A stretch of DNA of 11,809 bases from Chlamydiae bacterium RIFCSPHIGHO2_12_FULL_49_11 (GCA_001794905.1 MGLW01000065.1:1-11809); one strand, 5' to 3'; shown: positions 1,691 to 7,400, counted from the stretch's first letter. Notes: generated by a model from the letters alone, not told the origin. Made by a program: numbers and translations.

Positions 1691-2014
1691 ATGAACATCA
1701 TGCTCATTAAAGAAAAGGCTTTTTTGCCTTTTAGTGGGCTGGCTCCGGTTAATGGAGTAACGGCGCAGGATCAGCGCGATACTTTCGCCCGCGAACTTGC
1801 GATTTTGTTTAATCTTCCCCCTTTTACTTTCACAGATTGGAGTGATGCTTTTGCGCATCTATCAAGACATTTCACGGCCAAACCCACTGTCATTCTCTTT
1901 GATGAGATTTCATGGATAGGTTCAAAAGATCCGACATTTGTCTCCAAGTTAAAAGTTTGGTGGGACCTTGTCCTGCAAATCATTCCCATATCATCCTTAG
2001 AACCAGCCGTATAA
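1691..2014 (+). pseudogene. Degraded AAA-family ('archaeal ATPase'-like, ATPase_2-type) ATP-binding protein fragment
   Basis: Retains FSGLAP, TDWSDAF and the Walker B region VILFDEISW...DPTFVSKLKVWWD, but has no Walker A (GRRRxGKS in this family). Apparent frameshift near 1977-1980: the shifted frame reads NHSHIIL (1978-1998), the strand expected before the family CGS motif, then similarity ends. Confidence 0.7.
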
Positions 2015-2034
2015 AATCACTATCCGTTTTTTTC

Positions 2035-2063
2035 TTGTACTTATATCTATTATTGGTAATAAT
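2035..2063 (+). promoter_or_regulatory. Possible sigma70/sigma66-type promoter for the orphan gene
   Basis: TTGTAC (2035-2040), 16-17 nt, (TGg)TAATAA/AATAAT (2057-2063). AT-rich context lowers specificity. Confidence 0.35.
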
Positions 2064-2093
2064 TCAAGCTTATTTTAAGGAAAGGTGAATTTT

Positions 2094-3188
2094 ATGGATA
2101 TTTCTGGAGGAAAAGAGTTGCTGAGTTTTCGGTCTTCTAATTACGTCGAGTATGATGAGACTGATTTTTCAATTGATCCCAAAATTGATGATACTGTTTT
2201 ATCAATTTGTTCCAGATCTGATGTTACGCTTGAAGCAAAAGTAGAGCAATGTTTAGCGGCTATCCGGCAGCATCATGCAGGAAATCTCGATATAGAGACT
2301 AATAAATTGTTATCATACAAATTTAGCAGTGGAGGAGTGCCTCGCGCCGAAGATCCTGTGATCCAAATGCTCGTTCGTAGGGGTGCCTTCTCGTCCCTTC
2401 CTCTCCCGAAACAGTTTGTCTTAGTTGCTAACTACGGGACCGATGATGATGTAGCGCTATTCTTGTGCCACAATCCATCGGGATTTATCCTAGAAGAGAA
2501 TTATATAAGCGCTTATGACTTAGAAGACCTGTTTTGCAACACATCACAACTCGTACGTAGAGCCGTTATCGGTGAGTTAAACCGCCTTTCTGGGGACGAA
2601 ACCCAACAAGAAAATGTAAAAAGATTTGTCGTGAATAGTTTTTGGACAAGTGAGAGTATTTACAAATTAATTTTTTCGAATGCGTTTAGTGAAATCGCAT
2701 TTACCGAGGATATGCTTGCCTCGATCTTTAGTTATTGTTATACGTTTACTGTGGAAGAATTATGTGAGTTAATAAGCAAAGAACCTTCCGCAAATCTGAA
2801 GCAGTTTTTTGATTTTATAGTTTTATTTTATCAATATAGGCCCGATAGAGTTTTACGATTGTATTTGGACAATCGCCCCCAATTTAAAGGCATTCTACCC
2901 GAAGTTATCGAAGCCCCTATTCGCTGGGACCCGAAATACTTTTTTCCGAGCTGCCTGGAATCAATTCAGGAAATGATTTCCCTAATCCCGAAGAGTGGTG
3001 TTTCTAACAAGTTTATTTCTGAAACTTTAAGAAAAATTATGAAGATCTTATCTCGCAATCGAGAAGCTTTAGGTCAAGCTAATTGGAAAGAAATTTGCAC
3101 TCTCATAGCTTCCGAACCCGTTCTTTCCTCACTTCGAAATATGGAATTTTTTTCCGATCAGGCAATCCGTGACATGCTAGAGCTCTAG
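2094..3188 (+). CDS. Hypothetical protein (364 aa from ATG 2094, 367 aa from GTG 2085), AT-rich, apparently helical
   Basis: Long uninterrupted ORF in AT-rich DNA; AAGGAAAGGTGA SD-like sequence ahead of ATG 2094. No catalytic motif, signal peptide or transmembrane segment recognised. Confidence 0.8.
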   Translation: MDISGGKELLSFRSSNYVEYDETDFSIDPKIDDTVLSICSRSDVTLEAKVEQCLAAIRQHHAGNLDIETNKLLSYKFSSGGVPRAEDPVIQMLVRRGAFSSLPLPKQFVLVANYGTDDDVALFLCHNPSGFILEENYISAYDLEDLFCNTSQLVRRAVIGELNRLSGDETQQENVKRFVVNSFWTSESIYKLIFSNAFSEIAFTEDMLASIFSYCYTFTVEELCELISKEPSANLKQFFDFIVLFYQYRPDRVLRLYLDNRPQFKGILPEVIEAPIRWDPKYFFPSCLESIQEMISLIPKSGVSNKFISETLRKIMKILSRNREALGQANWKEICTLIASEPVLSSLRNMEFFSDQAIRDMLEL

Positions 3189-3872: not shown

Positions 3873-4388
3873 CTAAAAGGAAACACCGGCTCGGATTTGC
3901 GGGAGAGGCATTACTTCCAATTTGTTTCTGCGCTTTTTCTCTATCCCGTACCTCGTTTCACTTACGAGAAGCTGGGTCGAGACCCCGATATCAAAAAATC
4001 CGCCCGCGCTCCCTTCCGTTCCAATGCGAAGGGGGACGAAAAGTCCCGGATACAATAAAAAGTGGGTTGACATGAGATCAGTGATGTAGGATCCGCCGAT
4101 GCCGGCACTCCCGTACCAGTGAGAGCCAAAATGGAAAAGCTCCGAGTAGGAAGCGGAAAGCATGTTTACGAGGAGGACTGAATGAACGTCAAGATCGAAC
4201 GATCTGTGACTGTTTCGAAAAGAAACCCCGGCTCCGGGCACAATGAGTGTCATGCTCAGATAGGGGACGGCTCTTGTTTCCAGTTGTGCCCAAACCGGCT
4301 GAAAGGCAGCCGTGGGCGCCTGTGGCATCTCGCTCGCAAAGAGTCCGGACAAAGAAGCACAAGTCAAAAATTTAATTATCTTTTTCAT
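3873..4388 (-). CDS. Exported hypothetical protein, possible small outer-membrane beta-barrel
   Basis: N-terminal MKKIIKFLTCASLSGLFA looks like a Sec signal peptide. Alternating Gly/aromatic strands (GAGVSFR, WYGSAGIGGSY, FFDIGVS) and a C-terminal IRAGVSF ending in Phe (BAM beta-signal-like). Confidence 0.7.
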   Translation of the reverse strand: MKKIIKFLTCASLSGLFASEMPQAPTAAFQPVWAQLETRAVPYLSMTLIVPGAGVSFRNSHRSFDLDVHSVLLVNMLSASYSELFHFGSHWYGSAGIGGSYITDLMSTHFLLYPGLFVPLRIGTEGSAGGFFDIGVSTQLLVSETRYGIEKKRRNKLEVMPLPQIRAGVSF

Positions 4389-4398
4389 AATGAATATA

Positions 4399-4428
4399 AT
4401 TATGCCCGATCGGTATTATTTATGTCAA
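4399..4428 (-). promoter_or_regulatory. Sigma70/sigma66-type promoter for the 3873-4388 gene (possibly also the Nudix gene)
   Basis: Minus strand TTGACA (4428-4423), 18 nt, CATAAT (4404-4399); 10 nt to ATG 4388; no SD visible. Confidence 0.55.
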
Positions 4429-4432
4429 CAAT

Positions 4433-7400
4433 TCATAAAAGTGTACAAGATGTTTTTGCCTTGACGGCACCATGAAGTTTTAAAAGATCTTCCACATTGG
4501 GTCTTGCAATATCAAGGGCTGTTTTTCCGCTACTACTTTCCAAATCGACCTTTGCGCCTCCAGAAAGGAGGGCTGCGACAACATCATAATGCCCCATTTC
4601 TGCTGCAATATGGAGAGGAGAATAGCGCGAGGTTGTTACTTTATTTATATCGACGATTCGTACGCTTTGTATTGGAACTGGTTTTCTTTGTAGGGATTGG
4701 AGCGGGATAGGTTCTTGTGGATTTTTCCATAGCTTAAATTGAGATGCCGGTCTGCTCACTGAGAGCAATTTATTTACGATGGCACTGTAACCCTGTTCAG
4801 ATGCATGATACAGGGCAGTCTTTCCGAAGTGATCGGCAACCTCTAGATCAATATTTACATTTTCGAGTAATACCGAGACGATATCAAAGTATCCCAAGTG
4901 ACAAGCGCACATCAAAGGAGTCATTCCGTTACCATTTTGAATATTAATTTGCGCCTGGCTTTGTAATAATTTCTTTACGGCATCTATTTGGTTATATTCT
5001 ACAGCAATGAAAAGAGCCGTCTTACCTTCTTTGTTCGTTGTATCTATCAAGATATTTTGAGAGAGCAAGAATCGGATCACGGCGACGTGCCCTTTTTTAG
5101 CCGCAAATATCAACGGGGTATTCCCAAAAATATCCCGGGTTTGAAGCACATCTGTAATCCGAAGAAGGGGTGCTTTAAGCAAGGCATTGATGGCATCCAT
5201 GTTTCCATTGGAACAAGCCGACATCAAAACGGTCTGTTGTTGAGTGTCTCTAATATCGATGCGTGCCTTATTTAGCAGCAATATTTTAATGGCATCGATG
5301 CGAGCATTTTGAACAGCAAAGAAAAGAGCTGTCATGCTTCGGTTGTTAGTTTGTTCTATCAGGGCACCTTGAGCAAGAAGGTATTGGATCACGGGAACAT
5401 TTCCACCTCTAGCTGCCCACATTAGCGGTGTATTCCCTTGAATATCAGAACAATTCAGTTGGGCATTTGCTATCCTCAGAATTTTTACAATTCTGAGATC
5501 ACCGGCATATGCAGCATGCATCAGAGCCGTTTCTTTTTTTTCATTACAAGATTCGACATCGATATGAAGCTGGATCAAGGTTTCGACCGCTTTTTTATGA
5601 CCATCGGCTGCAGCCTGCATTAGTACTTTGTAGCTTGCCCCGTTTTTTATGTCTGCTCTGGCGCCATTTTGGACCAGGATCGGTATTACTTCATTTCTAT
5701 CTTTCTCTGCAGCATGAAATAGAGCCGTATTTCCCGATAAGTCTACAACTTCGATTTTTGCTTTTTTTTCGAGCAAAAATTTGACCGCCCGGACATGACC
5801 GTGTCTTGCAGCAATCATGAGCGCCGTCCATCCGTTTATATTTTGAGCGTCAATGTTGCCTTGCCATTCAAGCACCATTTGGAGTATTTCCACAGAGCCC
5901 CCTTCTGCCGCACACATTAAAAGGGTCCAATGATCGTGGTCTTTGATGTCCGTTTTGGCGTGACGGTCTTTAAGGAATTTAAATGTGGAGTATCTACCAT
6001 GCAGCGCGGCGATCATTAATGGGGTATGGCCTTTCTCTGTTTGACTCTCAATTTCGGCACCATGTTCCATTAAGATGGTTACAATCCCATCATGACCGCC
6101 GCTCACTGCATACATGAGAGGGGTACATCCATCTTGATCTCTTGCAGTGACTTGTAGCCCTTCAGCAATAAAAAAAAGAGCCGCATCTACATTTCCATAT
6201 TGTGCAGCCACCATGATGGGTGTGACTTTATTACATGAGGCTACATTGGTAGCTTCTCCCGAATCTTTTAGAAAACGGATGATGGTCATATCGCCGTGCT
6301 TGGCAGCAAACAGCATAGGTGTCCAACCCTCTCCATTTTTACTATTTATTTGTTTTGGGTTATAGAGCAGACGCACACTTAAGGCGTTACCTAACTCTAT
6401 TGCAATCATGAAAGCAGTAGTACCATCTTTAGGGTTACCCTCGAAATCGGCTTTGAACACCCTAAGTTTTTCTATCACAGCGGGGTTACTACTTTTTGCA
6501 GCATACACCAATACTCCGCGGCCTTCTTTATCGATCTTTCGAAAATCTGCCCCCCTTTCCAAAAGTTGTGTGACGGTTTCCTCATTCCCGTTCTGAGATG
6601 CAAACATCAAAGCTGTTCGGCCTTGATCGTCATGTTCATCAATAGCTGCTCCGGCGTCTAATAGGTACATGGTTGTGATGTGATGATTATTTTGGGCTGC
6701 GATGAGGAGAGCGCCTCCTTTTCGCTTGAATTGTAAAGTAAGATTAGTGATTTTCATAATCAGTAGACGCACTACTTCTGTATGTCCCATTTGTGCTGCA
6801 TACATTAAAGCGATCTTATGTTCATGATCACGCGCACCGATTTTTGCACAGAATTCAAGTAAAATGCGTACGCTCTCCCGGTTCCCGTTGTATGCGGCAG
6901 CCATGAGCGGAGTCCAGTCGTGAACATCGGGCTGGTGGATATTCGCTGCCCGTTGGCATAATAGTTCTACTATAGCGGGATACTCTCTTGATGCAGCAAT
7001 AAAGAGTGCAGTACGGCCGTTACGATCTCTTTTATCTAGGTTGGCACCCGAGCAGATAAGCCACTCTACAGTTGCGCTATGATTGGCGTGGGAGGCGTGC
7101 ATGAGGGGAGTCCAGTCTTTATTAAAGGCAAAGTTGATATCTACACCACGGTCGTACAACATTTTCGCAATTTCGAGATAGCCCCTTTGTACGGCGACCA
7201 GGAAAGCACTTTGATACTCGATTTTGATGTTGGTAGTAGCGAGCCCATCGAACAATTTTCGTACGATTTCCGTGTCACCGCTATATGCTGCAAGTATTAA
7301 GGGTGCATTTTTCTGGGGATATTTCTTGGTTACCGAGATTCCTCTTTCAAGAAGAAGTTTGGCCATTTCGGAATGATGATAGAATAGAGCGGTCAGGAGC

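Follow-up and report, generated by a model that had tools for sequence, protein, structure and literature searches.

Described systems and the locus under study

To our knowledge, prenylation of bacterial effectors by the host has been demonstrated for only a few proteins of Legionella and Salmonella. AnkB and the Pel proteins of Legionella pneumophila are described as effectors of an amoeba-adapted intracellular bacterium that have domains of eukaryotic type, in AnkB ankyrin repeats, and a C-terminal CaaX box lipidated by the host (PMC4951486, PMC3710333). Lipidation is reported to anchor them to the vacuole or to host membranes, with about ten such proteins per genome, and PelE and PelF are listed as geranylgeranylated (PMC4951486, PMC3710333). 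Membrane localisation of the Salmonella Typhimurium type III effector GtgE, which ends in CTIL, is reported to require the CaaX cysteine and host protein geranylgeranyltransferase I (GGTase-I) (PMC13423502), and both are reported to be required for membrane association of SifA, another Salmonella type III effector (PMC4951486). Here an 11,809-nt stretch of DNA (GCA_001794905.1 MGLW01000065.1:1-11809, contig 65 of the genome of Chlamydiae bacterium RIFCSPHIGHO2_12_FULL_49_11; the window hereafter) was analysed for one gene, P0001, whose product combines leucine-rich repeats (LRR), an NB-ARC STAND NTPase and an ankyrin-repeat (ANK) array and ends in the CaaX box CTLL. P0001 is likely to be a translocated effector that is geranylgeranylated by host GGTase-I and thereby anchored to host membranes. 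Because it is one of six proteins in the genome with a geranylgeranyl signal, the bacterium probably relies on host enzymes to fix the proteins that it injects to host membranes.

Compared by description only, P0001 differs from AnkB and the Pel proteins in its probable delivery (type III rather than Dot/Icm type IV), in its size (2,063 residues as against small proteins), in its NB-ARC domain and ~35 ankyrin repeats, and in a Leu at X that points to GGTase-I; AnkB is described as having two ankyrin repeats and an F-box and as being farnesylated. The CTIL end of GtgE differs from CTLL by one conservative residue, whereas GtgE itself is a cysteine protease of the 228-residue class from a facultative pathogen and has no domain similarity to P0001. 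Prenylation of GtgE and SifA was proven experimentally, whereas P0001 is known from sequence alone. The Rho, Rac and Rap families are eukaryotic CaaL GTPases and substrates of GGTase-I. P0001 shares with such GTPases, as these are described, the C-a-a-L end, a flexible linker rich in Ser and Lys, and a second membrane signal provided by Lys or Cys further upstream (PMC1175975), but it is bacterial and no GTPase, its basic patch is much weaker, and no prenyltransferase was found in its genome. A further set of CaaX-tailed NB-ARC/DUF7779 proteins (P0009, P0086, L180, L191, L197 and L202), encoded in other Chlamydiales genomes and on an unassigned bacterial contig of 37% GC, belongs to the same NTPase family (23-33% identity), carries long ANK or tetratricopeptide-repeat (TPR) arrays, and often has lysines or a second Cys before the CaaX end. 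Unlike P0001, most of them have TPR arrays in place of ANK arrays; their residue at X is M, S, Q or L, and none is an orthologue of P0001.

The C-terminal tail of P0001

On the minus strand, P0001 closes with the codons TGT (4447-4445), ACA, CTT and TTA (4438-4436), followed by the stop TGA (4435-4433). The C-terminus reads ...LLKLHGAVKAKTSCTLL (also written ...LLKLHGAVKAKTS-CTLL), with Cys2060 of 2,063 residues exactly at -4 and Leu at both a2 and X, just as a preliminary description of this DNA had placed the motif. That description had also set the tail beyond the last ankyrin cap, which holds: the last Pfam ankyrin match (nt 4505-4654) stops near residue 2040, and therefore ~23 residues lie beyond the repeats. 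The lysines that it had proposed as a second membrane signal were confirmed (K2049, K2055 and K2057), although they are few and any such signal would be weak. The tail is identical in a 395-aa fragment from an independent assembly, so the end of P0001 is not an assembly artefact, and public data contain the full-length protein on four contigs.

In the published description of the PrePS predictor, GGTase-I is said to prefer Leu or Met at X, Ser or Lys at -1 and further Lys at -1 to -7, and prenyltransferase substrates are said to need a flexible, hydrophilic linker of 11 residues (PMC1175975). The linker of P0001 fits this profile as described there (Ser at -1, Lys at -3 and -5, small hydrophilic residues), and the earlier claim that a CaaX box with Leu at X is a preferred GGTase-I substrate agrees with the same source. 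Small or hydrophilic residues make up 82% of the linker (94th percentile). When the last 280 residues were modelled with AlphaFold from a single sequence, the last 8 residues were coil and the last 24 had a predicted local distance difference test score (pLDDT) <50.

Upstream of the tail, P0001 matched the NB-ARC family (PF00931) at 38.4 bits (cut-off 23.5) and DUF7779 at 21.9 bits, which is under the cut-off of 27. NTPase motifs were readable in the sequence (GLPGFGKST, LVVYDD, VVVTTTR, GKMPLWL), and the P-loop, Walker B, RNBS-B/TTR and GLPL-type motifs together with the NB-ARC profile fit the NB-ARC STAND NTPases. Many LRR proteins match residues 15-130, and the ankyrin array contains a low-confidence insert of ~40 residues near 1960-2000.

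CaaL ends in the genome

A crude gene set of 1,091 open reading frames (ORFs) of >=100 aa was compiled with overlaps resolved, covering 90% of the genome as coding, and expectations for C-x-[LM]-L ends were derived from the internal tetrapeptide frequency. A genome-wide count of CaaX ends against chance had been proposed with the preliminary description. Six of the 1,091 gene-like ORFs had a C-x-[LM]-L end where 0.20 were expected (Poisson 7e-8), and three ended exactly in CTLL where 0.018 were expected (9e-7); the tails are GHCTLL, DCCTLL, VLCTML, SSCRLL, TSCTLL (P0001) and CCCALL. Cys at -4 was present in 23 gene-like ORFs. Outside the gene set, none of 2,565 ORFs of >=100 aa had a C-x-[LM]-L end. 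Codons differ among the three CTLL tails, which are therefore not a DNA repeat. All three genomic CTLL-stop sites close long frames (2,076, 368 and 229 codons), whereas in a control of 19 genomes of the same family the 40 CTLL-stop sites among the matches listed closed no frame longer than 52 codons. The CTLL tail of P0001 is almost certainly not a product of chance. A CTLL end as a trait of the whole family was rejected on the same control (0/40 of the listed sites; CTLL was the only end counted). Rab-type CC/CXC ends showed no pattern, with only two C-x-C ends in the genome.

The CaaL set consists of three kinases (two Pkinase matches and one weak Pkinase match), one MORN-repeat protein and two ankyrin proteins, one of them P0001. 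Eukaryote-type domains (Pkinase, MORN, Ank) were thus present in 6/6 CaaL proteins versus 0/17 of the other proteins with Cys at -4 (Fisher's test by hand, ~1e-5). The latter comprised ten housekeeping proteins (GlgB, RuvC, an ABC-F protein, MnmE, a chorismate-binding enzyme, a tail-specific protease, glycogen phosphorylase, ribosomal protein S8, a recombinase and an amylase-like protein), one HEAT-repeat protein and six proteins without a family. Compared with other C-termini of the genome, the 11-residue linkers of the six CaaL proteins held a larger share of small or hydrophilic residues (Mann-Whitney p 0.0018). Two of the tails (DCCTLL and CCCALL) carry extra Cys immediately upstream, an arrangement that resembles palmitoylated GTPases. 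Kinase paralogues on contigs C15 and C57 are 36% identical and both keep C-x-L-L on tails that cannot be aligned. Five of the six CaaL genes have a guanine-plus-cytosine content (GC) at third codon positions (GC3) under the 15th percentile. At G000:C15:29750-32271 two kinase genes stand in tandem; the downstream gene ends in CTLL and its upstream paralogue (450 aa) does not.

Homologues of P0001 and their tails

The N-terminal 900 residues of P0001 had no orthologue among 5.8 billion clustered proteins (best match 32% identity over 9%). An exhaustive search of representatives with P0001 returned the protein itself, its own fragments and distant relatives. One clear relative, P0009 (738 aa, NB-ARC and ankyrin, 33% identity, E 1e-43), ends in ...RHTSCALQ. 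Retention of Cys at -4 on a diverging tail had been named in the preliminary description as a sign worth seeking among homologues, and it is seen here in the closest one.

With P0001's own 988-aa fragment (P0008) left out, 149 other matches were listed in this search. Among those listed, 8/82 matches to the NB-ARC region had Cys at -4, and 7/82 fitted C-x-[LIVM]-x (CALQ, CIIS, CIVS, CAIS, CTLL after NKKSRKNGC, CSIV and CLIK). The corresponding counts for listed matches outside the NB-ARC region were 1/67 (CTWS, from a fungus) and 0/67.

NB-ARC homologues were found in 21 other genomes when 400 genomes of the same order were searched. Chlamydial NB-ARC frames were fetched (33 in total), and 30 reached a stop. 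Four of these 30 homologues with a resolved end had CaaX ends (CLLM, CLVM, CNIL and CYLM; binomial 6e-10 at the internal rate of the P0001 genome). Their tails read ...KKQSKNKKEICLLM, ...EKKCLVM, ...NKNKSTSCNIL and ...SQGLCYLM, come from three further chlamydial families, and in two cases follow lysine-rich stretches. One locus in another chlamydial genome (G257:C1:2096526-2114156; L180 and L191) holds three NB-ARC genes, two of which end in polybasic CLLM and CLVM; the third frame is only 236 aa.

P0086 (L205:10001-17257) is a TIR / NB-ARC / TPR protein of 2,418 aa that ends in NKKSRKNGCCTLL (CCTLL). It has an N-terminal TIR domain and matches the defence models bSEFIR and PDC-S66. Its metagenome contig (37% GC, gene-dense, bacterial) has no neighbours in common with the P0001 genome. 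The neighbours of P0086 include small ankyrin proteins and a gene for a nucleotidyltransferase of the ANT(9) kind; P0086 was seen on 31 contigs in public data. PADLOC returned for P0001 only ankyrin-based models (PDC-M72A, Ankyrin and MzaA), all within residues 1591-1896, and its NTPase region matched no PADLOC defence model. Ankyrin-only matches of this kind do not appear to support a reading of P0001 as a defence NLR.

Several large ankyrin proteins are encoded at G000:C31:18590-29871, including a 970-aa LRR/ankyrin paralogue of the P0001 N-terminus (27% identity).

Gene content and genomic setting

The genome (1.26 Mb, 71 contigs, 82% complete, 48% GC) encodes five TLC-type (ATP/ADP-type) nucleotide transporters and an sctU-sctV-sctW-like cluster, in which SctU and SctV were above NCBIfam cut-offs and an SctW-like gene adjoined them. 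Hc1 was also matched; the control for this match was positive in Bacteroides too. The fumarase of the window is closest (60%) to that of a metagenome-assembled genome (MAG) labelled Chlamydiia (L092), and fumC, nudix and kdsA stand in the same order in the window and on the L092 contig. The TLC transporters, SctU and SctV, Hc1 and this synteny support a bacterium that lives in eukaryotic cells and has a translocation system.

Spacing between nudix and kdsA is ~570 nt in L092 versus 7.3 kb in the window, where orf171, P0001 and a doubtful ORF lie between them. P0001 has 43% GC (7th percentile among the genes of the genome) and 39% GC3 (5th percentile). Because of the synteny with L092, the extra 7.3 kb, the low GC and the chlamydial markers, the P0001 gene is regarded as a lineage-specific insert in a chlamydial backbone.

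Proposed mechanism and points against it

What was observed directly is a motif that is enriched, confined to proteins with eukaryote-type domains and recurrent in the NB-ARC family, together with the intracellular gene set and the finding of no prenyltransferase. A chlamydia-like bacterium with an obligate intracellular life would deliver P0001 to the cytosol of its host, probably through a type III system; translocation is suggested by its domains together with the CaaX enrichment. The CTLL end would be recognised by host GGTase-I and a C20 isoprenoid joined to Cys2060. Removal of -aaX and methylation form the usual pathway after prenylation, by which -TLL would then be removed from P0001 and the new end methylated. 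The large ankyrin scaffold with its NB-ARC nucleotide switch would thus be held at a host membrane on its cytosolic side, with only a slight electrostatic contribution from the few lysines close by, and all six CaaL proteins would depend on the same enzymes of the host. The steps that we infer are secretion, probably of type III, lipidation, the choice of geranylgeranyl over farnesyl and the membrane that is targeted. The preliminary description had taken the tail as a sign that the protein acts inside a eukaryotic host, and the enrichment, the domain class of the CaaL proteins, the tail of P0009 and the recurrence of CaaX ends in the NB-ARC family all point the same way.

Several observations weigh against this mechanism. 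With 2,063 residues, P0001 is large for a type III substrate, and no secretin of a type III secretion system was above cut-off in the genome (82% complete). The polybasic patch is weak (3 Lys in 15 residues) and not K-Ras-like, and the structure model of the tail is low-confidence (single sequence) and hence weak evidence. CaaX tails were present in only 3/12 kinase-like matches and 2/~13 ankyrin frames, and were lacking in the paralogues of the C67 protein and in the N-terminal P0001 paralogue on C31. A search of 40 relatives for P0001 gave two distant NB-ARC proteins but no orthologue, and its NB-ARC region was present in 0/21 genomes of the same family; selection on the tail is therefore not measurable. 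The MORN and C67 proteins likewise had no orthologues in same-family genomes, and the CaaL set is therefore young or fast-evolving. No PPTA or Prenyltrans match was found in the 82%-complete genome, but the Prenyltrans control matched no genome, so this absence carries little weight. The lipid type is the least certain step, because CaaL boxes are described as substrates for farnesylation also (PMC1175975).

Alternative explanations

Cys might stand at -4 by accident in a Leu-rich protein, and ~1.6% of the genome's proteins (17/1,085) do carry Cys at -4 without sign of function. An accident is nevertheless extremely unlikely given the excess of C-x-[LM]-L ends (6 versus 0.2 expected), their absence from the 2,565 non-gene ORFs, and the 40 listed CTLL-stop sites of relatives, none of which closes a gene-length frame; at most ~1 in 30 of the six CaaL ends would be accidental on these numbers. 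The tails could instead carry another C-terminal signal, with -T-L-L-COOH bound, for example, as a PDZ-type ligand of class I, or used by the bacterium as a tag for a protease or for sorting, and the Cys being incidental. Class I PDZ ligands have the consensus x-S/T-x-hydrophobic, and Thr stands at a1 in 4/6 tails (CTLL three times, CTML once). Such a signal is hardly credible, however, for CRLL and CALL, which lack Ser and Thr there, and for the set as a whole: the residues invariant across the six are Cys(-4), [LM](-2) and Leu(-1), i.e. the CaaX pattern, and the homologue ends CLLM, CLVM, CNIL, CYLM, CIIS and CAIS share only the Cys and an aliphatic a2.

A different history for the same motif would be inheritance of the gene, or of its 3' end, from a eukaryote or another symbiont with the CaaX box already attached, the tail then persisting unused in a protein that is undelivered or whose end is inaccessible. 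P0001 does lie in a low-GC insert of 7.3 kb that is absent from the syntenic relative, five of the six CaaL genes share low GC3, and NB-ARC, ANK and LRR are eukaryote-like domains. We consider such a relic improbable, since the tail occurs on six protein types called unrelated, with differing codons and linkers that cannot be aligned, since the kinase paralogues retained C-x-L-L through divergence to 36% identity, and since the motif recurs in four chlamydial families, whereas a tail of four residues without a use should decay. Bacterial defence sensors are commonly NB-ARC proteins that carry arrays of repeats, and the TIR domain and defence-model matches of the homologue P0086 fit that background. 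P0001 could be a STAND NTPase that works inside the bacterium, such as an NLR-like anti-phage sensor, is never exported and has a tail without a role. This is very improbable: PADLOC reached P0001 through its ankyrin repeats only and matched nothing in the NTPase region, and an unexported sensor would leave unexplained the CaaX ends that kinases and proteins with MORN or ankyrin repeats carry in the same genome, and the polybasic CaaX ends of homologues.

Significance of a probable host-lipidated effector

Prenylation of bacterial effectors by the host is a known mechanism. The lineage, an environmental chlamydia, is new, as is the carrier, a giant NLR-like STAND/ankyrin protein accompanied by a MORN protein and kinases; new too is that CaaX ends recur within a single NB-ARC family in different chlamydial families. 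In the literature, where a 2011 in-silico survey of CXXX motifs (Al-Quadan et al.), known via citations, may list chlamydial proteins, we found nothing published that brings together CaaX boxes or prenylation and the environmental chlamydiae, and nothing that describes or tests the CaaX-tailed NB-ARC/DUF7779 homologues. One paper with terms from both fields (PMC3482391) is unrelated. A wider generalisation is tentative and may well fail: environmental chlamydiae and at least one other bacterium would inject host-lipidated NLR-like STAND NTPases, a habit extended in this genus, apparently recently, to a six-member geranylgeranylated kit with three kinases.

If this generalisation holds, a bacterial platform for nucleotide switching or oligomerisation, with a huge ankyrin or TPR binding surface, would sit on host membranes, where it could hijack hubs of host signalling or serve as a decoy for them. 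The finding suggests that membrane-anchored bacterial NLR-like proteins exist as a class of effector. An uncultured chlamydia holds a coherent and statistically clear CaaX repertoire, and the motif is recurrent in one NTPase family in several chlamydial families. The CaaX end offers a simple marker, readable from sequence, for effectors in chlamydial MAGs, where effector prediction is otherwise weak, and short fusions of the tail to green fluorescent protein would allow an inexpensive test in the absence of both bacterium and host.

Features of the window

Coordinates of P0001, its parts and neighbouring features, in nucleotides from the first letter of the window.
Feature	Coordinates	Strand	Basis or detail
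P0001 gene, 2,063-aa LRR / NB-ARC / ankyrin protein	4433..10624	minus	ORF translation, Pfam
CaaX box Cys2060-Thr-Leu-Leu	4436..4447	minus	TGA stop at 4433-4435
Linker KLHGAVKAKTS, residues 2049-2059 (11 aa)	4448..4480	minus	Ser -1; Lys -3, -5, -11
Ankyrin-repeat array, residues ~893-2040, ~35 repeats	4505..7948	minus	Pfam matches and structure model
NB-ARC STAND NTPase (537-676) and DUF7779 (746-813)	8186..9016	minus	Pfam, motifs read from sequence
N-terminal leucine-rich repeats, residues ~16-130	10235..10579	minus	Weak LRR_6 match; LRR proteins
Lineage-specific insert of 7.3 kb: orf171, P0001, doubtful orf159	3873..11173		Between nudix and kdsA
orf171	3873..4388	minus	45 nt downstream of P0001
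orf159	10726..11205		Doubtful; appears non-coding
Low-GC segment with two orphan ORFs	1691..3188	plus	Between fumC and nudix

Within the same insert as P0001, orf171 encodes a protein with a signal peptide that is rich in beta-strands, ends in ...RAGVSF, and had no Pfam or NCBIfam match. A role as a type III chaperone was considered and rejected; because of its signal peptide, beta-rich composition and terminal Phe, the protein looks like a small outer-membrane beta-barrel protein. The status of orf159 as a real gene was likewise doubted. Between fumC and nudix, GC falls to 39-41%, and neither of the two orphan ORFs there was found on the syntenic contig of L092. The longer (367 aa) is helical and without a family match, and the shorter (107 aa) resembles an ATPase fragment.

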